NCBI GenBank assembly: GCA_040373665.1
Contig: JBEICA010000001.1
Span: 1 to 57,746, forward strand
Direction: 5' to 3'
Source of the DNA: Burkholderiales bacterium
GTDB taxonomy: Bacteria; Pseudomonadota; Gammaproteobacteria; Burkholderiales; Ga0077523
Length of the DNA stretch: 57,746 nucleotides
How positions within the stretch are numbered: position 1 is the first letter of the stretch; each line of letters opens with the position of its first letter. The notes beneath the pieces are model-generated. The model did not search any database. It saw nothing but the letters and a program-made list of their open reading frames with translations, and was not told the DNA's origin. Of this stretch, positions 9,489 to 46,085 are shown piece after piece. A program made the translations under genes and the position numbers.

Positions 9489-9499
9489 GGTGGTTCCCC

Positions 9500-10354: not shown

Positions 10355-10480
10355 CTGGACATTCCTCGCGTGCACGACCCCACCGGGGCCGGCGCAGTGC
10401 GCCCCGTCGGGTCGTGTCGGTTCGTTCAGGGGCCGGGTCCCGACCTGCAGGCCGGGACACGGGGCAGGGCTGCCGGCGTC

Positions 10481-11263
10481 TCAGGTGGCGGCTTCGCCCT
10501 TGAAGACCTGCGGCAGCAGCTCTCGCATGCGCGCGATGATCTGCATCAGCACGCCGGCCAGGGCGAGGGCGTTCCAGCCCAGCACGACGAAGCCCCAGTG
10601 CAGCGGATGGGAGAAGATCTCCTCGGTCAGCCAGTAGGCGTGGCCCCACTCGTTGTAGCCGAGATTCGGGAGGATGAGGAACGGGCCGACCACCGCGAAC
10701 ACGTGCATCAGGGAGATGCCGCGGCAGAAGGCGGGGATGCGCGTCATGGCGTAGACGAAGCTGCCGACGCCGAACAGCAGGTAGATCGGTATGCAGGCAT
10801 AGAACAGCACGATGTGGCTGGGCGTGATCGGGGTGTCGCGCAGCACGGTCTGGTGCCAGTTGCCATCCCCTTCGGCGAAGAAGCTGCCGGTCCAGTAGAA
10901 GGTGAAGGTGTACACCACGAGCCACATGGTGAGGTAGAAGTAGCGCCGCAGCTCGACCGCCGGGGCGACGTTGTCCATGTCGCGCTCACGGGTGGCGATC
11001 AGGTAGACCTGGACGGCGGCGGCGATGCCGAACAGCACCGGCATCTGGATGTAGAACAACCGCATCCAGACGGCCTCGAAGGCCGGGTCCGTGGAGTCCA
11101 GGCCGACGGTCATGCCGTGGGCCTGCTGGTACATGCGATAACCGACATACACCGCAGAGAGGATCACCAGAGAGACCAGGAACATCGTGTAGTTGAGCCC
11201 GAACTTCTTCGCCTTGGCGGCCGGCGTCGACTGCGCCGGCAGGGCGGCCTGTGCGTTTGCCAT
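10481..11263 (-). CDS. xmoC: Copper membrane monooxygenase subunit C (PmoC/AmoC family)
   Basis: FFAEGDGNWHQTVLRDTPITPSHIVLFY and NEWGHAYWLTEEIFSHPLHWGF, the PmoC metal-site motifs. GAGGAG RBS 8 nt upstream of the ATG. Confidence 0.9.
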   Translation of the reverse strand: MANAQAALPAQSTPAAKAKKFGLNYTMFLVSLVILSAVYVGYRMYQQAHGMTVGLDSTDPAFEAVWMRLFYIQMPVLFGIAAAVQVYLIATRERDMDNVAPAVELRRYFYLTMWLVVYTFTFYWTGSFFAEGDGNWHQTVLRDTPITPSHIVLFYACIPIYLLFGVGSFVYAMTRIPAFCRGISLMHVFAVVGPFLILPNLGYNEWGHAYWLTEEIFSHPLHWGFVVLGWNALALAGVLMQIIARMRELLPQVFKGEAAT

Positions 11264-12901: not shown

Positions 12902-13207
12902 TCAGGCCTTGCCCGGAGGCGGGCCGTAGTAGCCCTTGCGGTCGGTGATCTCGCGCAGCAGGCGCGCGCCCTCGACGACGTGGGCGTGCAGGCCTTCGCC
13001 GCCGCCGTCGATGTGGCGCAGCAGGGCTTCCCGCATGCGCGGATCCCAGTAGGTGCGCAGGTGGTTGCGGATGCCCTCGGCACGTCGCCCCGGGGGATAG
13101 GGGGCGAAGAAGTCACCGATCTGGTTGGCCATGGTGATCATGCGAGACATGGCCAACACCGGCGTGTCCGCGTCGCGCCCGGCGTGGGAGTCGGTCACGG
13201 TGCTCAT
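12902..13207 (-). CDS. fdsD: Formate dehydrogenase delta subunit (FdsD family)
   Basis: MANQIGDFFAPYP...IRNHLRTYWDPRMREALL matches the FdsD pattern. Its ATG overlaps the fdsA stop (ATGA at 13204-13207). Confidence 0.75.
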   Translation of the reverse strand: MSTVTDSHAGRDADTPVLAMSRMITMANQIGDFFAPYPPGRRAEGIRNHLRTYWDPRMREALLRHIDGGGEGLHAHVVEGARLLREITDRKGYYGPPPGKA

Positions 13208-16072
13208 GCGTCCACCGCCTCGGGGGTCGCGCGCTCTGCCGCGGCGCGCCCGGAAGCGGCCTGCCCGACCAGCGAGACTTCCACCGCCGTGACCTTGTAC
13301 TCGGGGCAGTTGGTGGCCCAGTCGGAGAGGTCGGAGGTGACCACGTTCACCCGTGTCTCGGCGTGGTGGAAGGTGGTGTAGACGATGCCCGGATTGACCC
13401 GCGGCGAGATCCTGGCGCGCAGCTGCGTGCGACCGAAACGGCTGGTGACCCAGACTCTGTCACCGTCGCGGATGCCCCGCGTCGCCGCATCCCCGCTGCT
13501 GATCTCGAGCACGTCCTCGGGGTGCCAGCGCGAGTTGGCGGTGCGGCGGGTCTGGGTGCCGACGTTGTATTGGGTGAGGATGCGGCCGGTGGTCAGCAGC
13601 AGTGGCAGCTGGTCCGAGGTGCGTTCCCGCGTGGGCACGTATTCGGTGAGCATGAAGGTGCCGCGGCCATTGGCCCGGGGGAAGCGCTCGGTGTGCAGCA
13701 CCTCGGTACCGTGCGGGGCGCGCTCGTCACAGGGCCACTGCGCCGAGCCGATCTCGTCGAGGAGGGCGAAGCTCAGTCCGCGGTAGGTCGGCGACAGGCG
13801 CGCGATCTCGTCGAGGATCTCGCCGGCGTGCTGGTAGTGAGCGGGGTAGCCCATGGCGTTCATGAGCTTCACCACCACCTCCCAGTCCTGGTAGCCCGCC
13901 AGGGGCTCCACCACCTTGCGCACGCGGTTCACGCGCCGCTCGGCACTGGTGAAGGTGCCGTCCTTCTCCAGCGAGGAACTGCCGGGCAGGAAGACGTGGG
14001 CGTACTTCGCCGTTTCGTTGAGGAACAGGTCGTGGACGATCACGCAGTCCATGGCCTTCAGCGCCTCGATGATGTGGCTCTGGTTCGGGTCGCTCTGCAC
14101 CGGATCCTCGCCCATGATGTACATGCCGCGGAAGTGCCCGGTGAGCGCGGCGTCGAACATGTTGGGCAGGCGCAGGCCGGGTTCCGCGTCCAGCGGCACC
14201 CCCCAGTCCGACTCGAAGCCGGCGCGCACCTCGTTGTCGGTGACGAAGCGGTAGCCGCTGAACACGTGGGGCCAGCTGCCCAGGCAACTGCCGCCCTGGA
14301 CGTTGCCCTGTCCGCGCAGCGGGTTCACCCCCACCCCCTCGCGGCCGAGCATGCCGCAGGCGAGCGACAGGTTGCCCAGGCACATGACGCCGGTCGATCC
14401 CTGGGAGTGCTCGGTCACGCCCAGGCCGTAATAGATGGCGCTGTTGGGCCCGCCGGCGTAGAGCCGCGCGGCACGGCGGATGTCCGCGGGGTCGAGGCCG
14501 GCTTCCGGGCCGATGACCTCGGGGGTGTAGCGGTCCGAGCCGACCAGGTCACGCCAGACCTCGAACTCGTCCCATTCGCAGCGCGCGCGCACGAACGCCT
14601 CGTCGAACAGCCCTTCGCGCACGATGACGTGGGCGATGCTGTCCAGCACGGCGACGTTGGTGCCGGGTCGCAGCGCGAGGTGGACGGAGGCCTCGACGTG
14701 GGGCGAGCGCACGGTCTCCGTGCGGCGCGGGTCGATGACGATGAGCTTCGCCCCCTGCCGGATGCGGCGCTTGAGCAGGGAGCCGAAGACGGGGTGGCCT
14801 TCGGTGGGGTTGGCGCCCACCACCATGATGACGTCGGCCTTCAGGATGGAGTCGAAGTGCTGGCTGGCCGCGCCCCAGCCCACCGTGGCCGACAGGCCGA
14901 ACTGGGTGGGCGAGTGGCAGATGCGGGCACAGTTGTCGACGTTGTTGTTGCCGAACACTGCGCGAGCGAGCTTCTGCACCAGCCAGATCTCCTCGTTGGT
15001 ACACCGTGAACTGGAGATGGCACCGATCGAGCGCACGCCATGGCGCGCCTGAATGTCCTGCAGACGGCGCGCCGCGAAGCGGAACGCCTCGTCCCAGCCC
15101 ACCTCGCGCCACGGCTGGTCGATGCTGTCGCGGACCATGGGGGTGCGAATCCGGTCCGGGTGCTGGTAGTAGTCGAAGGCGAAGCGGCCCTTGATGCAGC
15201 TGTGGCCGTGATTGGCCTTGCCTTCCTTCCAGGGGATCATGCGCACGATGCGGCCGCCGGCGGTCTGCGCCTTGAAGCCGCATCCGACGCCGCAGTAGGC
15301 GCAGGTGGTGACCACGCTGCGATCCGGCTTGATCGGATTAGCCACGCTGGTACTCCGTTTCGAAGAGGCTTTTTTCCACGAGGGCCTGCGTCGGACAGGT
15401 CTGGACGCACGCACCGCAACTGACGCACTCGGACTCGAAGAAGGGTTCGTCCTGTCCCGCCGCCACCTTGGACTCGAAGCCGCGTCCCTGGATGGTCAGG
15501 GCGAAGGTGCCCTGGATCTCCTCGCAGGCGCGGACGCACCGGCTGCAGACGATGCACTTCGCCGGGTCGAACAGGAAATACGGGTTCGACAGGTCCACCG
15601 GGCTGTCGCGGTGGTCCTGCCCGCCGTGGTAGGGATGGCTGTGGACGCCGACCTCGGCCAGCACCTCGTGCAGCTCGCTCCACCCGTCGGGGACATCGCC
15701 TGCAGGGAAATCCGACAGGTAGAGCTCGAGCACGCCCTTGCGCAACCGGGTCAGCGCCTCGGAGCGCGTGCGCACCACCATGCCCTCGGCCACCAGCGTG
15801 GTGCAGCTCGCCGGGTAGCCCCGCATGCCATCGATCTCGACCAGGCAGACGCGGCAGCTCCCGAAGGCCTCCAGCGTGTCGGTCGCGCAGAGCTTCGGCA
15901 CCGACCGCCCGGCGCGCGCGGCTGCCAGCATGATGCTGCTGCCGCGGGGCACGGATACGGGCACGTCGTCCACGGTGAGCTGCACGAGATCGCCCGACCT
16001 CGGCGGTGTTCCGAGGTCCGCGTCGTCGGAGAGGTTGCGCAGCTCTGCCCACATGGTTCGCTTTTCCTGCAT
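13204..16072 (-). CDS. fdsA: NAD-linked formate dehydrogenase alpha subunit (FdsA), frameshifted as assembled (fragments 15338..16072 and 13204..15414)
   Basis: N-terminal fragment carries 2Fe-2S/4Fe-4S motifs (LCATDTLEAFGSCRVCLVEIDG, CIVCSRCVRACEE, CVSCGACVQTCP) and ends at TAA 15338-15340. The second frame continues with VVTTCAYCGVGCGF..., the Mo-bisPGD catalytic domain. Confidence 0.85.
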
Positions 16073-30890: not shown

Positions 30891-33125
30891 TCAGCCGTCC
30901 TGCCGGGATCGCAGCCACTCGAGCATGACCTCGGCCGGCTGCGGGGGCGAATACAGGTAGCCCTGCGCGAAGTCGCAGCCGAGGTCCGTAAGACGCAGTG
31001 CCTGGGCGTCGCGTTCGACGCCTTCGGCGACCACCTTCCTGCCCGACCCGGAAGCCAGCCCGATGACCCCGCGGACGATGGACTGGGCCTGGTCGTCCTC
31101 GATCATGTGCTCGATGAAGGAGCGGTCGATCTTGAGTGCCGAGGCGGGCAGGGTCTTGAGGTAGGTGAGGGTGGAGTAGCCGGTGCCGAAATCGTCCAGG
31201 GCAAACTCCACGCCGAAGGCCGTGCAGGCCTCCATGGTCGAGGACACGGCGGCGATGTCGGCCAGGGCCGCGCTTTCCACCACCTCGAACTTCAGCCGGC
31301 CCGGGCTCACGTCGGGGTGTGCGTCCAGGGCGTGGCGGACGGCGGCGGGAAAGCCGGGGTCGTGGAGCCAGCGCGCCGAGACGTTGACGTTGACGCCGAG
31401 CACCACACCGCGGCGCGCCCATCCGGCGCAGTCCGCCAGCGCCGCGCGCAGCACCCAGGCGTCCAGTTCCAGCATCACCGGGTCGTCCTCGATGGCGCCG
31501 AGCCAGTGCGCGGGAGGCAGGGGCCGGTGCCCGGGACGCTGCCAGCGGATCAGGGCTTCCACCGAGCGCACCTGGCCCGAACGCAGTTCCACGATGGGCT
31601 GGTAGTGCAGCACCATGTGACCCTGCTGCAGGGCTGCGGCCACTGCCGACGCCTGTTCCCGCCGCGCCGCGATGCGTCGGTCGTGCTCGGGATTGAAGCG
31701 CACGGCACTGCCGCGGGCGTCGCGCTTGGCCGAGTAGAGCGCATGTTCCGCCTGACGCAGCAGCGCATCGGGATCCCTGTCCTCCGGCCCGACGATGCGC
31801 ACGCCGATGCTGGCCGTGAGTCCGAGGTCGACGCCGGTGGCGAGCCCCAGACCATGGGAGGTCGCCACCCGCAGCAGCTCGAGGATCTGCTCGATCTCGT
31901 CGTCGGAAGACAGGTCCTTGACGAGGACGGCGAAGACGTCGCCGCCGAGACGGGCCACGGTGTCGATCGAGCGAACCGTGGCCTGCAGCCGGCGCGCCAC
32001 CTCGACCAGGATGCGATCGCCAGTCTCCCGGCCCAGGGTGTCGTTGACCGACTTGAACCGGTCGAGGTCGAGCACGCAGATCGCCACGCGCGTGCCGTTA
32101 TCGCGCGATGCCGAGAGCGCCTGCTCCAGCCGGTCCGACAGCAGGGCCCTGTTGGGCAGGTGAGTCAGCGCATCGACGTGGGCGAGGCGGTCCAGCCGCA
32201 GCTGCTGCTCGCGCAGCGCGGTGACGTCCGAGAAGGCGCAGACATACCGCAGCCCCGAACCGTCGAGGGCGTCCACCGCGGTGACGGCGGCGTCGGCAAG
32301 GAACAGGGAGCCGTCCTTGCGGCGCTTCCAGACCTCCCCCTGCCAGGGGCGCCCCGCCCGGATGGAGGCCCACATGGCCGCATCGACGTGCCGATCCTGC
32401 AGGCCCGAGGCGAGCAGCTTGCCGGTGTGGCCGGTCGCCTCCGCGGGGTCGTAGCCGGTGATGCGGGTGAATGCCGGGTTGACCGAGACGATGCGGCCGT
32501 GGGAGTCGGTCACGAAGACGCCTTCGCGCACATGGTCGAAGACCGTCCTGGCCAGAGACAGACCGGCGGTCAGGCGGTGACGCTCGAGGGCCTGGGCGAT
32601 GGCGGCACCGGCCAGCTGCAGCAGCGGGGCGAGTTCAGGCGCCCAGGCGCGGTCGGGTTGCACGAACTCCAGCAACAGCAGGTCGCGATCGGCGCCCGGG
32701 CTGCTCACGCTCACCAGTGCCAGCGCGTGCGACACGCGCGCCTCCAGGAAGCCGCGTTCCGCGGTCGCTGCCGAGGGCAGTCCGGCAATCGTGGTGGCCG
32801 GCGCCGGCTGGTCCGGCGCGAGGCGGGCGAGCCACCAACCGAATGCGCTCAGCGGGGTACCGGCCAATCCTGTCCTGGCCGTGGGCAACCCTGGTTCCGA
32901 CCACTCGTGCACGACGCCGACGTTGCGGCCGCCCGGGGTCGGCCGACACAGGCTCATGCGGTCGGCGCCGCAGGCCTGACCGAGTTCGCCGAGGAACTCC
33001 GCCAGCCGGCCGTCGAGCTCCTGCGGCGCCATCGTGGCAAGCTCGCCCGCGATGCGGGCCACCGACCGCGCGGTCGCGCCGATGTCTGCCGATGGTACGG
33101 GGGGCGTCCCGGCGGCGGTGCTCAC
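30891..33125 (-). CDS. GAF-PAS-GGDEF-EAL signalling protein (c-di-GMP turnover)
   Basis: PAS (SVNPAFTRITGY), GGDEF domain with a GGDVF motif (RLGGDVFAVL), EAL domain (VEALIRW, DDFGTGYSTL, KIDRSF). Confidence 0.85.
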   Translation of the reverse strand: MSTAAGTPPVPSADIGATARSVARIAGELATMAPQELDGRLAEFLGELGQACGADRMSLCRPTPGGRNVGVVHEWSEPGLPTARTGLAGTPLSAFGWWLARLAPDQPAPATTIAGLPSAATAERGFLEARVSHALALVSVSSPGADRDLLLLEFVQPDRAWAPELAPLLQLAGAAIAQALERHRLTAGLSLARTVFDHVREGVFVTDSHGRIVSVNPAFTRITGYDPAEATGHTGKLLASGLQDRHVDAAMWASIRAGRPWQGEVWKRRKDGSLFLADAAVTAVDALDGSGLRYVCAFSDVTALREQQLRLDRLAHVDALTHLPNRALLSDRLEQALSASRDNGTRVAICVLDLDRFKSVNDTLGRETGDRILVEVARRLQATVRSIDTVARLGGDVFAVLVKDLSSDDEIEQILELLRVATSHGLGLATGVDLGLTASIGVRIVGPEDRDPDALLRQAEHALYSAKRDARGSAVRFNPEHDRRIAARREQASAVAAALQQGHMVLHYQPIVELRSGQVRSVEALIRWQRPGHRPLPPAHWLGAIEDDPVMLELDAWVLRAALADCAGWARRGVVLGVNVNVSARWLHDPGFPAAVRHALDAHPDVSPGRLKFEVVESAALADIAAVSSTMEACTAFGVEFALDDFGTGYSTLTYLKTLPASALKIDRSFIEHMIEDDQAQSIVRGVIGLASGSGRKVVAEGVERDAQALRLTDLGCDFAQGYLYSPPQPAEVMLEWLRSRQDG

Positions 33126-33277
33126 CGATGCCGCTCCGCGACGGAGGCAGGACGTTCGTGACGATCACGGTTGGCAGGTTGCGTCCCTGCGAGCCAGGCG
33201 GCTGTGTGGATTCTCATGGGTGCTGCGCGTTTCTCCCTTAGGAGAAATCTGCCATACATCCAGCACGTTTGTCATGC

Positions 33278-35542
33278 TCAGCGCCGGAGGCCTCCGTGTC
33301 GCGCCCGCCACTCAGCTGCGCGTGCGGCCAGATGCGCAAGCGCCTCCGACACCTGGTCGATCAGGATCAGGCAGACTTCTCCGGGCAGCAGATGGTCCAG
33401 CGCACGGTCGATGGCGACGAACTCGCCGCGGATCTCCTCGATGTCCGACACCCGGGCGGCATCGCGCATCCCCTGGCGCAGCAGGGCCATGACCTCGCCG
33501 TCCGCGCGCCCGCGCTGGGCGGCGTCCTGGTAGAGCAGCACACGGTCGAAGGCGGCACCGACGATGCGCCCCTGCGCGACGATGTCCTCGTCCCGCCGGT
33601 CCCCGGCGGCGCTGATGACGATGCTGCGGCGGGTCGCCGCCATGCCGTCCAGCCCCTGCACCAGGGCGGCCAGCGCGTCCGGATTGTGGCCGTAGTCGGC
33701 GAACACGGTACCACCGCCGATGTGAAATTCGTTGAAGCGCCCGGGTACGCTCGACGGAGTGGCGTCGAAGTCGGCGAGCGCCGTCTCGATGGCCGTCCAG
33801 GGCACGCCAGCCGCCCAGGCCGCCGCGGTCGCGGCGAGGACGTTCTGCACCTGGAAGCCCAGGATGCCGCCGCGGGTGACCGGGATGGCGCCGAGGGGCA
33901 TGCGCCAGGAGACCGCTTGACCTGCCATGGCGCTCACCCGACCGTCGGCCGCGTGCACGCATCGCCCGCCGCGCGCGCGATGTTCCACCATGCCCGGGAG
34001 CATCGGATCCGCGGCGAACAGGATCACCTCCCCTGGACAGGTCCGTGCCATGGCCGCCACCAGCGGATCGGCGGCGTTCAGCACTGCGGCGCCGGTCGGT
34101 GCCACGTTCGCGACAATCACCTGTTTGACCGCGGCCAGATCCTCCAACCGGTCGATGTGGTCCAGTCCCAGATGGTCACCCGTGCCGATGTTGGTGACCA
34201 CGGCGACACTGCAGCGATCGAATCCCAGACCCTCACGGAGGATGCCGCCGCGCGCTGTTTCGAGAACCGCGGCATCCGCATCCGGGTGAAGCAGCACACT
34301 GCGCGCACTGCGCGGACCGCTGCAGTCGCCGCTGTCGGTCTGCCGCCCGTCGACGAACACGCCGTCGGTGTTGGTCATGCCGACGCGCAGGCCGGACGCC
34401 GCGAACATGGCCGTCGTGAGGCGTACTGTCGTGGTCTTGCCATTGACTCCGGTGACCGCGACGACAGGGATCCTGCCGTCCTCTCTGGGGCCGAAGAGCG
34501 TGCCGAGGATTGCGTCGCCGATCTGACCTGCCCGGTTGGCGGCCGGAGGCAGGTGCATGCGCAGATCCAGGTCCGGATCGACCGCAACGACCGCGCCGCC
34601 CTGGCGCTCGAGCGGCTGGCACAGGGTCTGGCACACGAGGTCGATGCCGCAGACGTCGAGGCCGACCACGCGGGCGGCTTCGACGGCATGCGCCACCACC
34701 TGCGGATGCACGTCCTCCGTGAGATCGCCGGCCGCGCCGCCGGTGGCTGCGACCACTCGACCGCCGGCCACGAGAAGCCGGTGGAGGTCGCCGGGCACCA
34801 GGTCCGGAGTCGGCGTCTCGTCGCCCGGTGCCACGGCCGCATCGACCGCGGCCTCCGGCACGACCTGCCCGGCCCCGGCGGGGCGCGCTTCCCCCGGCAC
34901 CGGGATGCCGGCGGCAGCGAGCAGCCGCCTGCACAGGGCCGCGTCCCGGGTGATGGCCGCGGCGATGGCGCTGGAGCGGTCGCTCGCGGTGCCCCGGATG
35001 CGCCGTTGCCGACTGCCCCAGCCGAGCTGGATCAGGTCGCCGGCCCCGATGGGAAGCGACGGAATGCCCCGCGCCGTCGCGGCCTCGACGATCGCCTTCG
35101 CGCCCGGCCCGGGGCGGCGCTCGGCGGCGAGCGACTTCAGGCGCCCGACGGCGCCCGCGAGGTCGAACGGCGCATCCTGCAGCACCGTCTGGTGGAGCGT
35201 GCAGGCCAGTTCGAAGGCGAGACGACCCACCGCCTCTTCGGTGTACTCGACCACCGAGCGATATACGGCCGGGTCGCTGGTCGGTGCCTCCCGGCAGAAC
35301 CCGACGGGGCATCCGGCCGCCATCTGCAGTCGAAGGGTGGCCTGCGCCAGAAGCAGCGCCAGCGAGCCCGGGACATCCCCTGTCGCGGTGCACCCCTGTC
35401 CGGGCGTCGGAAGACGCGCATCCAGCCGGTGCGTGGTCGTGATGGTCCGCTCGGCCGGGTCCAGGCGCATGATGACTTCCAGCGCGGTGCGCCGGGTCCA
35501 GATGTTGGGGCCCCGGAGGGCGCGTATGCGGGTGATCTCCAT
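33278..35542 (-). CDS. Cyanophycin synthetase paralog with degenerate ATP-grasp (G) domain and intact Mur-ligase-like (M) domain
   Basis: Part of ORF 33278..35647. Start MEITRIRALRGPNIW (CphA N domain). The G domain lacks the KP-DGN-G-GV loop and about 80 aa before DVHP, and EVNAAPG is replaced by AVDPDLD. The M domain is intact: TGVNGKTTT, LETARGGILREGLGFD, GDHLG, NAADP, PGRFN, DYGHNP, GDRRDEDI. Confidence 0.85.
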   Translation of the reverse strand: MEITRIRALRGPNIWTRRTALEVIMRLDPAERTITTTHRLDARLPTPGQGCTATGDVPGSLALLLAQATLRLQMAAGCPVGFCREAPTSDPAVYRSVVEYTEEAVGRLAFELACTLHQTVLQDAPFDLAGAVGRLKSLAAERRPGPGAKAIVEAATARGIPSLPIGAGDLIQLGWGSRQRRIRGTASDRSSAIAAAITRDAALCRRLLAAAGIPVPGEARPAGAGQVVPEAAVDAAVAPGDETPTPDLVPGDLHRLLVAGGRVVAATGGAAGDLTEDVHPQVVAHAVEAARVVGLDVCGIDLVCQTLCQPLERQGGAVVAVDPDLDLRMHLPPAANRAGQIGDAILGTLFGPREDGRIPVVAVTGVNGKTTTVRLTTAMFAASGLRVGMTNTDGVFVDGRQTDSGDCSGPRSARSVLLHPDADAAVLETARGGILREGLGFDRCSVAVVTNIGTGDHLGLDHIDRLEDLAAVKQVIVANVAPTGAAVLNAADPLVAAMARTCPGEVILFAADPMLPGMVEHRARGGRCVHAADGRVSAMAGQAVSWRMPLGAIPVTRGGILGFQVQNVLAATAAAWAAGVPWTAIETALADFDATPSSVPGRFNEFHIGGGTVFADYGHNPDALAALVQGLDGMAATRRSIVISAAGDRRDEDIVAQGRIVGAAFDRVLLYQDAAQRGRADGEVMALLRQGMRDAARVSDIEEIRGEFVAIDRALDHLLPGEVCLILIDQVSEALAHLAARAAEWRARHGGLRR

Positions 35543-36237
35543 CTTCAGGGCCTCCCGGCCTGTGACGTGGCGCAGTCGGATGCGGCGCAGCGCCGCGCAT
35601 CCGCGGGACCGCGTGCCAGGGTGACAACGATGGCGCCGGGCGGGCATCCACCCTGGCGCGTGGCCCGGGGCCTGGCCCGTGAGGCAGGCTGCCGGGGGGC
35701 GGCGCGATGGCGGCCAGTATGCCAGCCGTAAACCTCCCGGCCCGCGGTTGCCCTGGCGGACGCTTCCACCTCGCCGAGACCGCGCATGCCTGGAGATTGC
35801 CTGCCCGGGGTCACGTGCCCGATCATGTTGCCTGATCGCGCGTCGCCGTCCGGGTATTGCAGGGCTGTGTGTGATCGCGCGGCCCTGCCAGGAGGGACCG
35901 GTCCACAGGATCGGGGCCCACGGTTCCAGGGTTTTCGTGTCGGCCCGGGCGTCGGGGCGGCCCCGGTGGGCCCGGCGTTCCCGTCATGCCAGGGTGTGCC
36001 GTGCCGGCGGGCCCGTCGCGGAGCCGCCGGGCGCTGCCTGCCGCGACGGCCGTTGCCCGTGTCAGCCGTCGAGTATCCTGCGAGGACCATGTTCCGGATG
36101 TCATCTGAAAGCGGGGCCCTGCCAGCCCTTGTCCCGTCGACCCGCGAATCAGGCGTCATGACCCTTTCGCGGTGCGCCGGTCGGGCCACGCCAGGTCCGT
36201 GCGACCGTCCGGATGGCCGGATGCGGGGCCCGTCGTC

Positions 36238-38484
36238 GTGAGTGCTCCCGGTTCCGCGCAACGCCCCGACCCCACGCCTTCCGTGTTGCCGCCCCTGGCG
36301 GTGGCGCGGCTCGCGCCCGGGGAACGCATCCTCGCGGTGCTCGAGACCGATCTCGACGCGCGCCTGCGCTATGCAGACGGACTTCTGGTGCTCACCGACC
36401 GACGACTCATGGCGGGCGGCGGCCGCGACCCCGCATGGCAGGACTGGCCCCTGACTCCGGACGGGGCGCTGCGGCTCTTCGAGCGTGCCGGTGTCGCGAG
36501 CCTGGAATTGTCCGAGGGTGGCGAGCGCGTGGCCGCCTGGCGTTTCACGCGCCGTCTGGTCGCGGCGGCCGCGGCCCTCGTCGAGCGTTTCGAGGCGGGG
36601 GGCGCCGGGCGTGTCGTCCCGGCGCCAGAGACCGTGGCGGCACCTGTGGCCACGGCCGAGGCCGCGCAGCCGGCGGCCCGCAGCCTCCTGCGGCTGTGGC
36701 GTTTCGCCCGGCCCTACCGGGGCCGTCTGGTGCTCGGCTTCGTTCTCACTCTTCTCTCGACCGCGGCGACGCTGGTGCCGCCCTACCTGACCATGCCGCT
36801 GATGGACCGGGTCCTGATCCCCTTCGGCACCGGGGTGCCGATCGATCAGGCACTGGTGACGCGCCTGCTCGGTGCCTTGTTCACGGCGGCGCTGCTGGCG
36901 TGGGCCCTCGGCTGGGCGCGCACCTACGTGCTCGCCCTGGTGAGCGAGCGCATCGGCGCCGACCTGCGCACCGCCACCTACGAGCACCTGCTCGGACAGT
37001 CCCTGGAGTACTTCGGCGCGCGCCGCACCGGCGACCTCATGGCGCGCATCGGGGCCGAGACCGACCAGATCTGCCTGTTCCTGTCGCTGCACCTGCTCGA
37101 TTTCGCCACCGACATCCTCATGATCGCGATGACGGCTGTGATCCTGGTGTCGATCGACCCCTCGCTGGCCCTGGTCACGCTGTTGCCGCTGCCCTTCATC
37201 GTCTGGTTGATCCACCTGGTGCGCGACCGCCTGCGCCTCGGTTTCGAGAAGGTGGGGCGCATCTGGGGCGAGGTGAACAACGTGCTGGCCGACACCATCC
37301 CCGGCATCCGGGTGGTGAAGGCCTTCGCCCAGGAACGTCGCGAGGTGGGCCGGTTCCGGGAGGCCAACCGCAGGAATCTCGCGGTGAACGACCGTGTGAA
37401 CCTGTTGTGGGCCCTGTTCTCGCCGTCGGTGACGCTGCTGACCGAGACCGGACTGCTGGTGGTCTGGGCCTTCGGCATCTGGGAGGTGTCGCGCGGGGAG
37501 ATCAGCGTCGGCGTGCTGACCGCCTTCATTGCCTACATCGGCCGGTTCTACACCCGACTCGACTCGATGAGCCGGATCGTGGCACACACCCAGAGGGCGG
37601 CGGCCGGTGCGAAGCGGATCTTCGAGATCCTGGATCACGCCTCCAGCGTCCCGGAGTGCGCGCAGCCGCGGGTGCTGGAGCACGTCGCCGGTCGGATCTC
37701 GCTGCGCGGCGTGAGCTTCTGTCACGGCAACCGCCAGGTGCTGCAGGGCCTCGATCTGGAGATCGAGCCGGGTACGATGATCGGCCTGGTGGGCCCGAGC
37801 GGCGCAGGCAAGAGCACGCTGCTGAATCTGATCTGCCGCTTCTACGACCCCGCCGGGGGCGCGGTGCTGGTCGACGGCTTCGATCTGAGGTCGGTGTCGC
37901 TGTCCTCGTACCGCCGGCACATCGGGCTGGTGCTGCAGGAGCCTTTTCTGTTCTTCGGGACCATCGCGGAGAACATCGCCTACGGCCGGCCGGAGGCGAC
38001 ACGCGAGGAGATCGTGGCCGCGGCGCGGGCGGCGCATGCCCATGAGTTCATCCTGCGGCTGCCGCACGGCTACGATTCCCTGGTCGGCGAGCGCGGCCAG
38101 GCCTTGTCCGGGGGCGAACGCCAGAGGATCTCCATCGCGCGGGCTCTGCTGATCGACCCGCGCATCCTGATCCTGGACGAGGCGACGTCCTCGGTCGACA
38201 CCGAGACCGAGACCGAGATCCAGCGCGCGCTCGAGAATCTGGTTCGGGGACGCACCACGATTGCCGTGGCCCACCGCCTCAGCACCCTGCGCCGGGCGGA
38301 CCGCCTGGTGGTGCTGGACGCCGGGCGCATCGTGGAGACGGGGACACATGAGGTGTTGATGGCGCGGCAGGGACACTACTGGCGACTGGTCCAGGCACAG
38401 GCCCGGAACCGGGAGGATGCGCCGGCGGAGCCGTTCTGGTCCGACGACGCCCTGACCTCGGCGCGCGGCGAGGACCAGACATGA
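36238..38484 (+). CDS. ABC exporter (fused TMD-NBD, MsbA-like) with an approximately 170-190-aa N-terminal extra domain; cyanophycin-locus associated
   Basis: ORF 36172..38484. Six TM helices. Walker A GPSGAGKST, LSGGERQR, Walker B ILILDEATSSVD. The start is uncertain: GTG at 36172, 36199 or 36238. Confidence 0.85.
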   Translation: MSAPGSAQRPDPTPSVLPPLAVARLAPGERILAVLETDLDARLRYADGLLVLTDRRLMAGGGRDPAWQDWPLTPDGALRLFERAGVASLELSEGGERVAAWRFTRRLVAAAAALVERFEAGGAGRVVPAPETVAAPVATAEAAQPAARSLLRLWRFARPYRGRLVLGFVLTLLSTAATLVPPYLTMPLMDRVLIPFGTGVPIDQALVTRLLGALFTAALLAWALGWARTYVLALVSERIGADLRTATYEHLLGQSLEYFGARRTGDLMARIGAETDQICLFLSLHLLDFATDILMIAMTAVILVSIDPSLALVTLLPLPFIVWLIHLVRDRLRLGFEKVGRIWGEVNNVLADTIPGIRVVKAFAQERREVGRFREANRRNLAVNDRVNLLWALFSPSVTLLTETGLLVVWAFGIWEVSRGEISVGVLTAFIAYIGRFYTRLDSMSRIVAHTQRAAAGAKRIFEILDHASSVPECAQPRVLEHVAGRISLRGVSFCHGNRQVLQGLDLEIEPGTMIGLVGPSGAGKSTLLNLICRFYDPAGGAVLVDGFDLRSVSLSSYRRHIGLVLQEPFLFFGTIAENIAYGRPEATREEIVAAARAAHAHEFILRLPHGYDSLVGERGQALSGGERQRISIARALLIDPRILILDEATSSVDTETETEIQRALENLVRGRTTIAVAHRLSTLRRADRLVVLDAGRIVETGTHEVLMARQGHYWRLVQAQARNREDAPAEPFWSDDALTSARGEDQT

Positions 38485-38951
38485 GCGGCGGAGACTGGCG
38501 CCTGACACGATCGCCCTCGGGCCGCCTGCGGCTCGAGACCGCGGCCGGCGAGGTGCACGACGGGGTGGTGGCCGTTCGGGCGTTTCCGGTGAGCGCGCCG
38601 GGGGAGGCGGTGGCACTGGTCGACACGGCCGGGCGTGAACTGGTCTGGATCGGGACGCTCTCCACGCTGCCGCATGCCGGTCGACGAATGGTCGAGGAGG
38701 CGCTGGCCGAGCGCGAGTTCCTGCCCGAGATCCAGAGGCTTGCCGCGATTTCCAGGACGGCCACGCCGAGCGTGTGGTCGGTGGAGACCGACCGCGGCGC
38801 CACGCGCTTCGTCCTGCGCGGTGAAGAGGACGTCCGGCGACTGGGCGGCGGACGCCTGCTCGTGACGGACGAGAGCGGCATCCACTATCTGATCCGGGAC
38901 GAAGCGGCCCTGGACCGGCACAGCCGCAGGCTGCTCGAGCATTTTCTCTGA
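38481..38951 (+). CDS. DUF1854-like small cytoplasmic protein, translationally coupled to the ABC exporter
   Basis: ATGA overlap at 38481-38484. 156 aa, no TM helix, ends ...RRLLEHFL. The DUF1854 assignment is from memory, based on its pairing with this type of ABC exporter. Confidence 0.6.
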   Translation: MSGGDWRLTRSPSGRLRLETAAGEVHDGVVAVRAFPVSAPGEAVALVDTAGRELVWIGTLSTLPHAGRRMVEEALAEREFLPEIQRLAAISRTATPSVWSVETDRGATRFVLRGEEDVRRLGGGRLLVTDESGIHYLIRDEAALDRHSRRLLEHFL

Positions 38952-38990
38952 GGTCCGGAAGACAGGCCCGGCAACCTCCTCACCGGGGCG

Positions 38991-41558
38991 TCAGACGCCA
39001 TCCACCCTGGCCGCGAGGCGGGCGAGACCGGCATCGACGTCGCCCAGCAGCACAACGCAGACGTCGCCGGCCGCCAGAGGCGCGAGCCCGGCGCAGAACC
39101 CGTCCGCCTCGACGGCCCCCAGATCCCCGATACGCGCCCTGCCGCCGTGCTCGACGTCGTCGCGCGCCAGGCCGCTGCGGCCGCGACGCCGCGCCCCGGC
39201 GTCACGGCACAGGAGGATGCGGTCGTAGCGGTCGGCGGCAACGCGGCCGAGCGTGCGCACATCGTGTTCGCGTCGATCTGCGGGGATACCGATGACCAGG
39301 GTCCTGCGCCCCGGCAGGGCCATGGCATCCAGGGTGTCGGTCAGCGCCAGCAGGGCGTCGGCGTTGTGTCCGCGGTCCGCCAGTACCGTCGCTCCGCGAT
39401 GGCGGAACAGGTTGAGCCGGCCCGGCAGCGTCGTGGTGTCCGCCACCGCGGCCGTGAGCGTCACCTCGACGAGGGGCCAGGCGATGCCCAGGGCCCAGGC
39501 CGCGCCGACTGCGGCGAGCACGTTGTCGACCATGAACCCGGCGGCGCCACCCAGCGTGAGCGGGATGCGGGACAGCGGGAGGCGCCAGTGCTCGCGCGGG
39601 CCGTGACAGGCCACCACATGTCCTGCCTCGACCGTCACCAGCCGCTGGCCCCGCGCCCGTTGCTCCGTCATGACCGCAACGGTGCCGTCACGCGCGAAGT
39701 GGATCACGCTGCCGGGGCAGGCCGCACGCATGGCGGCGACGTTCGGATCCGCCGCGTTCAGCACGGCGACGCCGTCGGGTCCCATGTTCTGCACGATGAC
39801 CCGCTTGAGCACGGCAAGCTCCTCGACCGTCTCGAGGTGGTCCAGGCCCAGGTGGTCGCCGCTGCCGACGTTGGTCACGATGGCCACGCCGCAGCGGTCG
39901 AAGCCCAGTCCCTCGCCCAGGATTCCGCCACGCGACACCTCCAGCACCGCGGCGTCCACCTCGGGGTGGGACAGCAGGTCACGGGCGTGTGGCGCGTCGC
40001 TGCAGTCGCCCCGGGCGAGCCAGCGCGACCCGACACGGAGCCCGTCGCTCCCGGCCATACCCACGCGTTGTCCGGTCGCAGCGAGCATGGCCGCCACCAG
40101 ATGGGCCGAGATGGTCTTGCCGTTGGTGCCGGTGATGGCGACCACCGGGATGCGCCCATCGTCGCCCGCCCCGAACAGCAGATCGACAACGGCGCCGCCC
40201 ACGTTGCGCGGATGCCCGTAGGAAGGTGCAAGGTGCATGCGCAGCCCGGGTGCGGCATTGACCTCGACCACGGCCCCGTTCTGCGCCTCCAGGGGCTCGC
40301 CCACCGAGGTGCACACCACGTCCACGCCGCAGATGTCGAGACCGACCGCGGTCGCGGCCTCGACCACGCGTCTGGCCAATTCGGGGTGGACGTCGTCGGT
40401 GACGTCGGTGGCCGTGCCGCCGGTGCTGAGGTTGGCATTGTTGCGCAGCACCACCCGGGCACCCCGTGGCGGCACGTCGTCCGGCCCGTACCCCTGGATG
40501 CGAAGCCGCGCCTCGGCGATCTCGTCAAGACGGATCCGGGTCAGCGGCGTGGCGTGGCCGTCGCCGCGCTTCGGATCCTGGTTGACGCGGTCGACCAGGG
40601 CGCGGATGGTGTGCTCGCCGTCGCCGATCACGTGCGGCGGCTCGCGCCGCGCGGCGGCGATCAGCCGGTTGCCCACGACCAGCAGCCGGTGGTCGTGACC
40701 CGGCACGAAGCGCTCGACGATGATCTCGTGCCCGAACTCCTGCGCAGCCCTGAAGGCGATTGCCAGATGCTCGGGGGTCGACACGTTCACGGTGACGCCC
40801 TTGCCCTGGTTGCCGTCGCGCGGCTTGACCGCGACCGGGCCGCCGAGGGCCTCCATCGCGCACCGGGCCTCCTCCAGGGTGGAAACGCAACGTCCGGCCG
40901 GGACCGGGATCCCGGCGGCGCCGAGCAGGCGCTTGGTGAGTTCCTTGTCCTGGGCGATGGATTCGGCAATGGCGCTGGTGGCGTCGATCTCGGCCGCCTG
41001 GATGCGTTTCTGGCGGCTGCCCCAGCCGAGTTGGACGAGGCTGCCGTCGGTCAGGCGGCGTACGGGCACACCACGATCGGCGGCGGCGCGGACGATGGCG
41101 CCGGTGCTGGGGCCGAGGCTGACGTCCTCGTCGAGGGCCCGGAGGCGGGCCAGCGCGGAGCGCAGGTCGAAGGCGGTGTCGTCGAGGGCGGCGCGGTACA
41201 GCGCCTGCGCGAGGTCCAGCGCCAGACGTCCCACCGCCTCCTCGGCATATTCGACCACCACCCGGTAGGTCCGGGGCTCGATGGTCGGGGTGCAGTGGCT
41301 GAAGGTGACTGCGCTGCCGGCCTCCGACTGCAGCCGCAGGGTGGCGAAGCGCAGTGCCTGGGCGGCGGGCAGCGGCGCCATGTGACCGATGGGGCGGATC
41401 GGTCCGATCTGAGGAAACCGTGAGCGCAGCCGCGCCTCGAAGCCCGGCATGCCATCCAGTGACTCCTCGGCCGGCTCGAGCGACACCACCAGTTCCAGCG
41501 CGGTGTGGCGTCCCCACAGGTTCGGGCCGCGCAGGGCGCGGATGCGATCGATGCGCAT
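38991..41558 (-). CDS. cphA: Cyanophycin synthetase, full-length (N, G and M domains)
   Basis: MRIDRIRALRGPNLW; VAVKPRDGNQGKGV; ANLSTGGTATDVTDDVHP; VVEVNAAPGLRMHL; TGTNGKT; LEVSRGGILGEGLGFD; GDHLG; NAADP; PGRLNLF. The DYGHNP motif is altered to DRGHNA. Confidence 0.9.
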   Translation of the reverse strand: MRIDRIRALRGPNLWGRHTALELVVSLEPAEESLDGMPGFEARLRSRFPQIGPIRPIGHMAPLPAAQALRFATLRLQSEAGSAVTFSHCTPTIEPRTYRVVVEYAEEAVGRLALDLAQALYRAALDDTAFDLRSALARLRALDEDVSLGPSTGAIVRAAADRGVPVRRLTDGSLVQLGWGSRQKRIQAAEIDATSAIAESIAQDKELTKRLLGAAGIPVPAGRCVSTLEEARCAMEALGGPVAVKPRDGNQGKGVTVNVSTPEHLAIAFRAAQEFGHEIIVERFVPGHDHRLLVVGNRLIAAARREPPHVIGDGEHTIRALVDRVNQDPKRGDGHATPLTRIRLDEIAEARLRIQGYGPDDVPPRGARVVLRNNANLSTGGTATDVTDDVHPELARRVVEAATAVGLDICGVDVVCTSVGEPLEAQNGAVVEVNAAPGLRMHLAPSYGHPRNVGGAVVDLLFGAGDDGRIPVVAITGTNGKTISAHLVAAMLAATGQRVGMAGSDGLRVGSRWLARGDCSDAPHARDLLSHPEVDAAVLEVSRGGILGEGLGFDRCGVAIVTNVGSGDHLGLDHLETVEELAVLKRVIVQNMGPDGVAVLNAADPNVAAMRAACPGSVIHFARDGTVAVMTEQRARGQRLVTVEAGHVVACHGPREHWRLPLSRIPLTLGGAAGFMVDNVLAAVGAAWALGIAWPLVEVTLTAAVADTTTLPGRLNLFRHRGATVLADRGHNADALLALTDTLDAMALPGRRTLVIGIPADRREHDVRTLGRVAADRYDRILLCRDAGARRRGRSGLARDDVEHGGRARIGDLGAVEADGFCAGLAPLAAGDVCVVLLGDVDAGLARLAARVDGV

Positions 41559-41572
41559 GATGCAGGGGGCCC

Positions 41573-43753
41573 TCAGGCAGCCGAGGCGAACCCGGTGGCC
41601 GCCGGATCGAAGCTGCCGATGCCGGCGCGGATCAGCTCCGGCGACAACCCGAGCGCCCAGGCAGCCCCGACGGCGGTGAGCAGCGGGATGGTGCCGGCGT
41701 CGAAGGTCGCCCGCGCAAGAGGGAACTCAGGCAGGGCGAGCACGGTATGCAGCCCCTGCGGCGTCGCCACCCGGACGGAGTGGCCGTCGAGAACGACGGC
41801 ACATCCACCCGCGGCGACGTGGGCGGACACCACCGGGTTCTGCATGCCTTGCGCGCTGACATGGATGACTTTGCCCGGGCAGAGCTCCGCCATGCCCGCG
41901 ACCACCTCGTCGTCCGCGTTCAGCACTGCCGTCCCCGTGGGCAGCACCACGTCCACCTGCGTGCGCAACACCTTGAACAACTGCTCCGCATCCTCGATGG
42001 GCTGCTCGGGGATCAGATCCGCGGGGTCCAGGCCTGTGACGATGCCGACCTGGCAGCCGTCGTAGGCGAGCCCCTCCATCGCCATGGTGCGAAGTCCGTT
42101 CTCCACGACGATGGCCTCGAGGCTGCGATTCATCAGCAACCGGCGCGCGGCGTCCCAGCGGGCGCAGTCCCCCTGTTCGATCAGGCGTTGCCCGAGGTAG
42201 AGACCGTCGGCGCAGGCCAGTCCGGTCGACGTGCCTCGCAACTGCAGCAGATGGGTCATCAGACGGGCCACGGTGGTCAGTCCGTGGCTCCCGGCGACAC
42301 CCACCAGCGGGACACGGCCATCGTTCCCCGCCCCGAACAGATGCCCGACGATCGCCTCGCCCACCGGGCGGCCGGCGCCCTTGGCCGGCTGCAGGTGAAC
42401 CTGCAGCCCGGGGCCGGCGTTGACCTCGACGATGGCGCCGCCCTGGTCCTGCAGCGGACGGGTGATGTCCTCGGCCACCACGTCGATCCCGGCGATGTCC
42501 AGCCCCACCACGCGCGCCGCGAGGACTGCCATGGCCGCCACCTCGGGGTGGACGCTGTCGGTGACGTCGAAGCCGACATTGCCGTTGCGCTGGATCAGCA
42601 CCCGTGTGCCGGCGGGCGGCACGGACTCGGGGGTCAGACCCTGGTGCGCGAGTTCCAGCAGGGCGACCGAGTCGACCCGCACCGGATTCAACGGGTAGTC
42701 TTCGGTGCTGCCGCGGCGCGGATCGCTGTTCAACTGGCGTTCGATCAGCTCCAGCACCGTATGCTCGCCGTTGCCCGTCACCTGTGCGGCTTCGCCCTTG
42801 GCTGCGGCCACGAGACGCCCGCCGATCACCAGCAGCCGATGCTCGTCGCCAGGGATCATGCGTTCCACCAGCACGCCCGAGCCTTCGCACGCCGCGACGG
42901 CGTGAGCCGCCTCGATCTCGGATTGCCCGGTGAGGCCGAGCACCACGCCGCGCCCGTGGTTGCCGTCGAGGGGTTTGACCGCCACCGGCACGCCGACGTC
43001 GAGGGCCGCCTGCCACGCGTCGGCGGCGCTCGTCACCTCGCGCCCGTCGGGCACGGGCACACCGCAGCCGGAGAGCAGGCGCTTGGTGAGCTGCTTGTCG
43101 CGGGAGATGCCCTCGGCGATGGCGCTGGTGCGCTCGGTCTCCGCAGTCCAGATCCGGTTCTGCGCCTTGCCGTAACCGAGTTGCACCAGATTCCCGGCAT
43201 TGAGGCGGATATGCGGAATGCCGCGGGCCTGGGCTGCCGTGACGATCGCGCCAGTGCTCGGGCCGAGGCAGAACTCGTCACTCAGTTCGCGCAGGCGCGT
43301 CACGGCTGCACCCACGTCGCAGGGACGGTCGTCCATCGCGGCGAGCACGAGATCGCGTGCGAGAAAGATCGCCTCCCGCGTCACGTCCTCCTGCCAGCAG
43401 GTGACGATGACCTTGTACACGCCGCGCTCGGCCGTGCCGCGGGCGCGTCCGAAGCCGCCCGCCATGCCTGCCAGGGCCTGCAGCTCCAGCGACACGTGCT
43501 CGAGCACGTGACCGGCCCAGGTGCCTTCTTCCAGACGCCGCAGGAAACCGCCACGCTCCTCGTAGCTGCAGCGGTGTTCCACCAGCGTCGGCATCCAGGC
43601 GGTCAGCCGCCCGGGAAACCCCGGGATGCGGTCCGAGGGGAAATCCTCGAGATCCCCGATGTCGATCAGGGCTTCCAGCACGGGGTTGCAGGTCCACATG
43701 TTGGGACCGCGCAAGACCGTGATCTTGCGGATGTCGATGTGTCTTGGTGTCAT
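41573..43753 (-). CDS. Cyanophycin synthetase paralog, CphA2-like: G domain largely intact, M domain vestigial and C-terminally truncated
   Basis: Part of ORF 41573..43804. Start MTPRHIDIRKITVLRGPNMW. VAVKPLDGNHGRGV and IVEVNAGPGLQVHL are present, but ANLSTGGTA is replaced by NGNVGF. The P-loop is GSHGLTT (Lys lost), LETARGG is VENGLRT, and there is no C-terminal Mur-ligase subdomain. Confidence 0.85.
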   Translation of the reverse strand: MTPRHIDIRKITVLRGPNMWTCNPVLEALIDIGDLEDFPSDRIPGFPGRLTAWMPTLVEHRCSYEERGGFLRRLEEGTWAGHVLEHVSLELQALAGMAGGFGRARGTAERGVYKVIVTCWQEDVTREAIFLARDLVLAAMDDRPCDVGAAVTRLRELSDEFCLGPSTGAIVTAAQARGIPHIRLNAGNLVQLGYGKAQNRIWTAETERTSAIAEGISRDKQLTKRLLSGCGVPVPDGREVTSAADAWQAALDVGVPVAVKPLDGNHGRGVVLGLTGQSEIEAAHAVAACEGSGVLVERMIPGDEHRLLVIGGRLVAAAKGEAAQVTGNGEHTVLELIERQLNSDPRRGSTEDYPLNPVRVDSVALLELAHQGLTPESVPPAGTRVLIQRNGNVGFDVTDSVHPEVAAMAVLAARVVGLDIAGIDVVAEDITRPLQDQGGAIVEVNAGPGLQVHLQPAKGAGRPVGEAIVGHLFGAGNDGRVPLVGVAGSHGLTTVARLMTHLLQLRGTSTGLACADGLYLGQRLIEQGDCARWDAARRLLMNRSLEAIVVENGLRTMAMEGLAYDGCQVGIVTGLDPADLIPEQPIEDAEQLFKVLRTQVDVVLPTGTAVLNADDEVVAGMAELCPGKVIHVSAQGMQNPVVSAHVAAGGCAVVLDGHSVRVATPQGLHTVLALPEFPLARATFDAGTIPLLTAVGAAWALGLSPELIRAGIGSFDPAATGFASAA

Positions 43754-43945
43754 TGTCGATCGCCACCGCCTGGCGCACTGGAAGCTCGCGACGGTTGCGA
43801 TCACGGCAAGATTGCTGTCCGGAGACAGTGACCTTGGGGGAGCATACCGACGGACCGGCGATTATGCTGTCGTCGACCTGACACCAACCTTTCAGACGGG
43901 GCGCGGCGGGCGTCCCGGCTCCCCGGGTCAGATGGGCGCTGCAGG

Positions 43946-43976
43946 CCGGATGGGCGCCCGGGAGGCGCCCATCCGG
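43946..43976 (-). terminator. Perfect 13-bp hairpin immediately after the fadB-like stop codon
   Basis: CCGGATGGGCGCC-cggga-GGCGCCCATCCGG. No U-tract. Lies between fadB-like (ends 43986) and the cphA paralog (starts 43753). Confidence 0.4.
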
Positions 43977-43985
43977 CAGGTCACG

Positions 43986-46085
<2,100 letters not shown>

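Follow-up and report, generated by a model that had tools for sequence, protein, structure and literature searches.

The 57,746-nt stretch analysed here (the window; positions 1 to 57,746 of contig JBEICA010000001.1, assembly GCA_040373665.1, from a freshwater Burkholderiales bacterium) carries three paralogs of the cyanophycin synthetase CphA, hereafter A, B and C. Two of them show reciprocal loss and conservation at the level of whole domains: A has lost the catalytic portions of its ATP-grasp domain (G) and kept a complete Mur-ligase domain (M), and B has kept its G domain and bears an M domain that has diverged far from the rest of the family. This pattern is retained in relatives of the locus, and the trio is linked to genes of a cyanophycin-associated ATP-binding cassette (ABC) exporter. 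The explanation that we favour, with moderate confidence and on the strength of sequence comparisons, is a divided role of CphA: B would provide G and A would provide M, and both would work with the CphA'-type protein C and with the exporter. At this locus the lineage has its own three-gene form of the beta-proteobacterial cphA'-cphA / ABC exporter / DUF1854 system: a rare variant, restricted to the lineage, of a gene cluster that is known but uncharacterised, and not a new kind of system. Complementary domain decay among the three open reading frames (ORFs) had been proposed in an earlier note made from the nucleotide sequence. The ORFs lie where that note placed them, all three match the CphA family NF010623, every motif it quoted is present as written, and scoring of invariant columns against 51 CphA sequences bears the decay out. 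The reciprocal pair, however, is not A and C, as it had been read, but A and B, since the M domain in decay is that of B.

Residues are numbered after SuCphA1 (PDB 7LG5), whose residues 1-864 were rebuilt from HMMER alignments; the numbering was verified at ten literature landmarks (C59, H79, E82, H83, H57, R70, H267, D585, H586 and W672), and PMC9262961 and PMC9427784 supplied the functional residues. Residues were scored across a family set of 51 CphA and 50 CphA' sequences. Invariant columns were those with a conservation of 96% or more among the 51 beta-proteobacterial CphA (145 in G, 92 in the core and 64 in the lid of M). For comparison, a query with A against one genome per GTDB species gave 60 loci, and a metagenome scan 66 more. 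The NF010623 model (cut-off 877) was matched above its cut-off by B (1033 bits over 1-862 of 871 positions) and C (987 bits over 1-718 of 871) and below it by A (765 bits, in two stretches); under the TIGR02068 equivalog (cut-off 850), all three remained below the cut-off (B 829, C 701, A 617).

The G domain of A is extensively deleted. SuCphA1 residues 245-259, 263-281 (the entire P-loop-G) and 321-396 have no counterpart, a loss of about 110 residues in total; the loss of the Gly-rich loop and the change of the EVNAAPG motif had been recognised before, the extent having been put too low, at about 80 residues. The deletion of 321-396 removes the omega subdomain together with R323 and the greater part of the large loop. 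With the lid gone as well, and with K220A, K261V, E450A, N452D and G456D in what remains, the Mg and ATP ligands have disappeared and 76 of the 145 invariant columns are lost. Through its deleted P-loop, K220A, K261V and E450A, A therefore falls outside what defines an active CphA1 ATP-grasp site. Its N domain has likewise lost the Zn-peptidase motif (H57G, C59T, H79L, E82A and H83Q).

By the same measures the M domain of A is an ordinary one. K499, T500, T501, T522, E558, R561, D585, H586, F692, R731 and H748 are all retained, so that A possesses every known catalytic and ATP-binding residue of a CphA1 M domain together with the lid, as the motifs listed in the earlier note had indicated. Only 5 of 92 core and 8 of 64 lid columns are lost, 143 of the 156 being kept. 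The lid is 67-70% identical to those of L014 and L019, the nearest loci in which the arrangement is the standard one described below, and the root-to-tip distance of the M domain in a neighbour-joining tree is 1.23 (family, 1.09-1.20). An AlphaFold2 model of A is compact and CphA1-like, with a mean predicted local distance difference test score (pLDDT) of 84 and a predicted template modelling score of 0.85; pLDDT values reach 90-98 in the M domain and mostly 82-91 in the N domain, only residues 219-247 being disordered. The best structural match of the model is TeCphA1 (TM score 0.78). As in MurE, MurC and FolC, the M domain forms a complete Mur-ligase module (PF08245 plus PF02875; Foldseek match to MurE with E ~1e-21), but A differs from these enzymes by its CphA N domain, its G-core scaffold and an M domain 60-66% identical to CphA M domains. 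A is a reduced CphA, not a Mur ligase.

Ratios of nonsynonymous to synonymous substitution rates (dN/dS) were estimated by the Nei-Gojobori method between the window and L005, a Lake Mendota Burkholderiales metagenome-assembled genome (MAG) with the locus on contig JBILUV010000007.1; they rest on one close pair and on tens of substitutions. The values for A were 0.40 for N, 0.49 for the G remnant, 0.31 for the M core and 0.15 for the M lid, and the M domain, with 16 nonsynonymous and 23 synonymous differences, lies below the neutral expectation (p=2e-5). The comparison with the 73%-identical copy of A in L001, at a dS of 0.4-0.66 across domains (about 0.55-0.66 for the M domain), gave 0.15 for the M core and 0.12 for the lid, next to 0.51 for N and 0.40 for the G remnant. 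These data indicate that the M domain of A is clearly under purifying selection. Four of five independent contigs (the window, L004, L005 and L001) have an uninterrupted frame for A, and close copies show no indel across 2.26 kb save one extra G in L003, to which we return below. The L001 protein (P0003; JGI 3300015376) shares E450A, N452D and G456D with A, their M domains are 83-85% identical, and the boundaries of its G deletions differ (267-301, 334-346 and 355-400). Because the substitutions are shared and the boundaries are not, the G domain was already dead in the common ancestor of A and P0003, and retention of M is long-lived; the G remnant continued to erode after its inactivation.

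The reverse holds for B. Its G domain has lost 5 of the 145 invariant columns, within the family maximum of 6, and its M domain has lost 52 of 156: 21 of 92 in the core and 31 of 64 in the lid, where the family maxima are 5 and 5 (10 for the whole of M). At 24 of these 52 positions the family and the cyanobacterial SuCphA1 are identical. The changes include T501I in the P-loop, R504H, T520A, T522S (a Mg ligand), G539D/P540A/S542H, R566G, Y746R, P750A, G775A and one 2-residue deletion. B is full-length and carries the catalytic motifs, as had been seen from the sequence; as an intact reference copy it does not hold, and the family-typical cphA M domain that it lacks is found in A instead. The lid of B is 42-43% identical to the nearest normal CphA lids (L014, L019), when the median between family members is ~62-64%, and its G domain is 75-80% identical to those of the same two loci (80% to L019). 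The root-to-tip distance of its M domain, 1.59, lies outside the family range. All ATP-grasp residues tested in G (K220, K261, R309, R323, D431 and E450) are present but for H267Q, the P-loop reading DGNQGKG where all characterised CphA1 enzymes have DGNHGRG; the N domain has no Zn motif.

The dN/dS values of B relative to L005 were 0.23 for N, 0.18 for G, 0.13 for the M core and 0.77 for the M lid. With 17.8 nonsynonymous and 9.2 synonymous differences, the lid is indistinguishable from neutral (p=0.35) and differs from the remainder of B (22 nonsynonymous and 47 synonymous; Fisher p=0.0027); the G domain is under purifying selection. For the decay of M in B and its retention in A, the direction of the evidence is consistent across all measures, on small counts. 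That the G domain of B is tightly conserved while its M domain is expendable suggests a separate function for the Gln267 G domain.

C is not an unusual copy. Some 50 loci share one arrangement, with the DUF1854 and ABC genes on one strand and, diverging from them, a C-like gene of ~726 codons followed by a B-like gene of ~856; in ~45 of them the ABC transporter gene lies beside cphA'-cphA. C (PF18921, 119 bits) is an ordinary beta-proteobacterial CphA', with the length and the dead M site of all 50 family members: K499L, R561L and H586L are present, nothing remains past about residue 733 and there is no M lid. The dead P-loop and the C-terminal truncation of its M domain, both described earlier, are therefore real, and represent the standard CphA' condition of ~50/50 loci. 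Its N domain has the Cx19HxxEH Zn-peptidase motif intact, and its G domain has H267, K220, K261, R309, D431 and E450, with R323G and a large loop 5 residues shorter. The dN/dS values relative to L005 are 0.09 for N, 0.12 for G and 0.21 for the M-core remnant.

In the family at large, all 50 CphA' keep H57, C59, F67, R70, H79, E82, H83 and E87 as well as the ATP-grasp ligands; all have R323G and the shorter large loop, and the conserved M P-loop and lid are absent. All 51 CphA have Gln at position 267, every other G ligand, no N-domain motif and M-domain catalytic residues that are 100% conserved. Judged by these residues, the three sites known from CphA1 are already distributed between two proteins in the ordinary pair; no description of this family-wide split was found in the literature searched. 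All four structurally characterised CphA1 enzymes carry His267, and H267A, with which the Sharon lab inactivates G in SuCphA1, abolishes or reduces activity in SuCphA1 and TeCphA1 (PMC9262961, PMC9427784).

The genes between B and A, whose nature the earlier note had missed, are the cyanophycin-associated ABC exporter and DUF1854 genes. Since members of NF052233 and NF052234 lie between the paralogs, the trio is tied to a known cluster, which fitness data link to an exported polymer: in Acidovorax and Cupriavidus, cphA/cphA' and the exporter gene show cofitness, and an exported amino-acid polymer was proposed (Price et al., bioRxiv 10.1101/072470). A survey of activated sludge also reports two neighbouring cphA copies plus an ABC transporter, and no cphB (PMC10687191). 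C, B, ABC and DUF1854 are orthologous to the genes of the ~50 loci at 50-74% identity; C and B, 14 nt apart, are adjacent in the usual order. The window departs from the standard cluster in that C-B are convergent with DUF1854-ABC, whereas elsewhere ABC-DUF1854 are divergent from C-B, and also in having a third paralog, A, that diverges from the ABC gene, and a degenerate M domain in B. In the loci examined, the rearranged order, the third paralog and the degenerate M domain are confined to this narrow lineage.

Compared with characterised enzymes, all three proteins have the N-G-M fold of CphA1 (7LG5, 7WAC, 7LGN and 7LGM), but no single one of them holds all three active sites (Table 1). Alignment to SuCphA1 confirmed that the motifs called missing in A and C are missing. 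C had been likened to the CphA2 class (7TA5, 8FXH), with which it shares a truncated, inactive M domain and reliance on the G domain. In sequence it is far closer to CphA1 (475 bits, versus 179 and 172 to the two CphA2 structures), it has R323G and the shorter large loop, and it keeps the Zn-peptidase motif, which CphA2 lacks (PMC9262961); CphA2, moreover, is cyanobacterial and acts alone on beta-Asp-Arg. The resemblance between C and CphA2 is convergent.

The G-deleted architecture is extremely restricted. Among 5.8 billion clustered proteins it was found only in P0001 (99% identity), P0002 (92%) and P0003 (73%), and among 185,579 GTDB species genomes in one, L005. Within 219 CphA-like ORFs from 130 fetched loci, internal deletion of the G domain is limited to A-type proteins. 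Conservation of the trio in a related genome is borne out by L005, in which the entire locus is present in the same order as in the window, with 93-98% amino-acid identity (Table 1). A homolog search with B returned its own 98% cluster and then dropped to 66%; the B type with a decayed M domain is equally confined. A metagenome scan with P0003, made for its gene context, yielded only the L003 contig and ordinary cphA loci. The earlier note was not aware of a described M-only paralog, and we found no description of an M-only CphA form in the literature searched; the searches, which covered natural heteromeric CphA, M-only paralogs and the exporter cluster and were partly poorly aimed, surfaced only Price et al. 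and the activated-sludge survey.

As to origin, the M domain of A is 84% identical to that of P0022, a full-length cphA product from ERZ4201039 in whose intact G domain 3 of 102 invariant columns differ; that G domain is only 65% identical to the one of B. B, for its part, groups with L014/L019 in N and G (90-98% bootstrap). Tandem duplication of cphA within the lineage as the sole origin of A and B was rejected on the 84% identity of A to P0022 in M and the 80% identity of B to L019 in G. Because A groups with P0022 in M and B with L014/L019 in N and G, A descends from a distinct cphA lineage, as an older paralog or by transfer from a relative, and later joined the resident pair; reciprocal domain loss in A and B followed. 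Diverging from the ABC gene, A stands where C-B are found in other loci, and C-B lie downstream of DUF1854; this shift in gene order supports a rearrangement. On the P0022 contig (L002), a run of Ns at nt ~290-300 and a frame change split a normal full-length cphA, of which only a 636-aa fragment was called.

If the role of CphA is split in this way, C and B would extend and process the polymer backbone, A would supply ATP-dependent side-chain ligation, acting within a mixed oligomer or through hand-over of the growing chain, and the ABC/DUF1854 transporter would export the product; enzyme activity, assembly into a complex and the nature of the polymer are what we infer from the sequences. By analogy, cooperation between split sites is plausible because the isolated N domain of SuCphA1 acts in trans and engineered SuCphA1 N-G+M+/N+G-M- heterodimers are active (Sharon et al. 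2022, PMC9262961). As those heterodimers demonstrate, active sites on separate polypeptides can cooperate; they are, however, laboratory point mutants of one enzyme, whereas the arrangement here is natural, involves domain deletion and divides G from M, besides affecting N. Hetero-oligomers with divided active sites, put forward in the earlier note, may be regarded as plausible. More tentatively, the three proteins could form a three-subunit machine with the primer-generating Zn peptidase and one G site on C, the Gln267 G site on B and the side-chain ligase on A, a hetero-oligomer whose exported product is possibly a polymer other than cyanophycin. Were this so, the locus would offer a ready-made genetic dissection of the system, and the Gln267 G domain of beta-proteobacterial CphA would have an essential role of its own.

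Several observations weigh against a division of labour between A and B. B retains every individually known M catalytic residue except for T501I and T522S (K499, T500, E558, R561, D585, H586, R731 and H748 are present), and its M core is constrained, as the ratio of 0.13 given above indicates; the M domain of B may still be working or doing something new. The contrasts in dN/dS rest on small counts and one close pair. A and B are not simple recent duplicates, and 'split' refers to the outcome, not necessarily the history. The homologues from C. necator did not form cyanophycin (Price et al., bioRxiv 10.1101/072470). Finally, the A ortholog of L003, a 92% relative, has a 1-nt G insertion in a CCCC-GGG run at about nt 2950 (nt 432 of A), which puts the N domain out of frame with the remainder of the protein; this is either a homopolymer assembly error or real pseudogenisation in one population.

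The retained residues and the constrained M core of B would be expected if both M domains were active with different specificities, for another amino acid or acceptor, giving a modified or mixed-side-chain polymer. Many of the changes in B cluster in likely substrate-contact loops (539-542, GP.S to DA.H; R566G; Y746R), and the altered G pocket of CphA' (R323G, short large loop) makes non-canonical chemistry plausible. The lid of B is nevertheless evolving neutrally at present, unlike what an adaptive burst followed by constraint would leave, the 24 altered residues conserved through to SuCphA1 are lost, and the M domain of A is an ordinary one by its family invariants; we consider such neofunctionalisation unlikely. 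It is less probable still that A is a decaying, irrelevant extra copy, the relic of a duplicated or transferred cphA, and that B and C do all the work. A-type proteins are as rare as described, A has the highest overall dN/dS of the locus (0.36, relative to L005), its G domain is plainly degenerate and one copy is frameshifted; against this stand the dN/dS of 0.12-0.15 maintained in its M domain over the divergence from L001, the four of five copies without stops or indels and the 143 retained M invariants, and the M domain in actual decay is that of B. An origin in faulty assembly or binning, for the deletions of A or for the shortened C, can be dismissed for practical purposes: although the window and all its relatives are metagenome-derived or of unknown origin, the same deletions occur in independent ENA, JGI and GenBank MAG assemblies (L003, L004 and L005) and a related pattern in L001, and C-type lengths of 721-737 aa recur in ~50 genomes.

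Work on cyanophycin synthetases treats them as single proteins in which two ligase sites alternate. The locus constitutes a natural experiment in which a side-chain ligase module survives without G and a G module survives in a protein with a drifting M domain. A split of the CphA role between B and A suggests that beta-proteobacterial CphA requires each of its two modules and does not require a covalent link between them. The family-wide residue pattern also yields concrete hypotheses for the widespread two-gene system, in which the Zn-peptidase site is exclusive to CphA' and both Gln267 and a live M domain are exclusive to CphA. As a compact, naturally evolved M-only protein, A is a candidate tool for decorating poly-Asp backbones.

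Table 1. Features of the cphA locus and of neighbouring genes in the window. Site status is predicted from active-site residues of the N, G and M domains; the last column gives amino-acid identity to the L005 counterpart.
Feature	Position	Strand	Basis or remark	Site status	Identity to L005
FadB/J-like gene			upstream of C		97%
C, CphA'-type paralog, 726 aa	41573-43753	minus	NF010623, PF18921, residue table	N+ G+ M-	95%
B, full-length CphA-type paralog, 855 aa	38991-41558	minus	NF010623	N- G(Q267) M(degenerate)	96%
B, M-lid subdomain, residues 713-855	38994-39422	minus	near-neutral rate
DUF1854 protein, cyanophycin-metabolism-associated	38481-38951	plus	NF052234, 207 bits (cut-off 150); PF08909, 162 bits		98%
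ABC exporter, fused permease + ATPase, cyanophycin-metabolism-associated	36172-38484	plus	NF052233, 1241 bits (cut-off 880)		94%
Divergent intergenic region, ABC exporter/A, 629 nt	35543-36171
A, G-deleted CphA-type paralog, 754 aa	33278-35542	minus	NF010623, two stretches	N- G- M+	93%
A, N domain, residues 1-140	35123-35542	minus	CphA N fold without Zn-peptidase motif
A, G-domain remnant, residues 141-350	34493-35122	minus	G-core scaffold only
A, complete M domain (core + lid), residues 351-754 + stop	33278-34492	minus
PAS-GGDEF-EAL protein	30891-33125	minus			95%
LarA-like isomerase					94%
M14 zinc carboxypeptidase, 559 aa	27762-29441	plus
Formate dehydrogenase alpha subunit with adjacent 2Fe-2S/4Fe-4S subunit	13204-16072	minus	TIGR01591 (alpha subunit), 859 bits
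Copper membrane monooxygenase operon	8229-11263	minus	C-A-B order
AmoC-like	10481-11263	minus	NCBIfam bacterial ammonia monooxygenase, 348 (cut-off 319)
AmoA-like	9500-10375	minus	NCBIfam bacterial ammonia monooxygenase, 296 (cut-off 290)
AmoB-like	8229-9605	minus	NCBIfam bacterial ammonia monooxygenase, 512 (cut-off 336)
PCuAC copper chaperone	3887-4411

The intergenic region that separates A from the ABC gene is exactly 629 nt long and free of indels across four assemblies that are 80-99% identical. It has no codon periodicity, GC skew at third codon positions, Rfam match or sigma-70 promoter consensus; as neither periodicity nor skew is found, a coding function was ruled out. An ancestral cphA' relic in this region was likewise discarded, the best tblastn match with 111 CphA sequences having E ~0.3. 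The region presumably holds the promoters of both the ABC gene and A. A consensus scan of 33000-44200 gave no promoter-like site and one terminator-like site, located in B; shuffled controls gave more. Searched for Rfam families and tRNAs, the window returned no matches, and no cyanophycinase was seen among the ~30 ORFs of the window that were scanned.

Besides the FadB/J-like gene, the LarA-like gene also flanks the region. The PAS-GGDEF-EAL gene follows A downstream in the same orientation, after 153 nt. Synteny extends to it in L003, L004 and L005, and it was not detected in L014 and L019. A link between cyclic di-GMP and the putative exported polymer is possible from this neighbourhood. 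The M14 zinc carboxypeptidase gene, which is two genes away from A, converges on the LarA-like gene; it keeps this place in L003, and the protein has no NCBIfam match. A role for it in polymer processing would be speculative.

Farther away, the window encodes a copper membrane monooxygenase operon (Table 1), with the PCuAC copper chaperone gene nearby. Comamonadaceae are reported to have alkane-oxidising copper membrane monooxygenases. The substrate may be ammonia, methane or short alkanes; the family matches do not fix it because the genome is ~70% GC and belongs to Burkholderiales, not Nitrosomonadaceae. The formate dehydrogenase alpha subunit gene, with an adjacent gene for a 2Fe-2S/4Fe-4S subunit, lies beside the operon.

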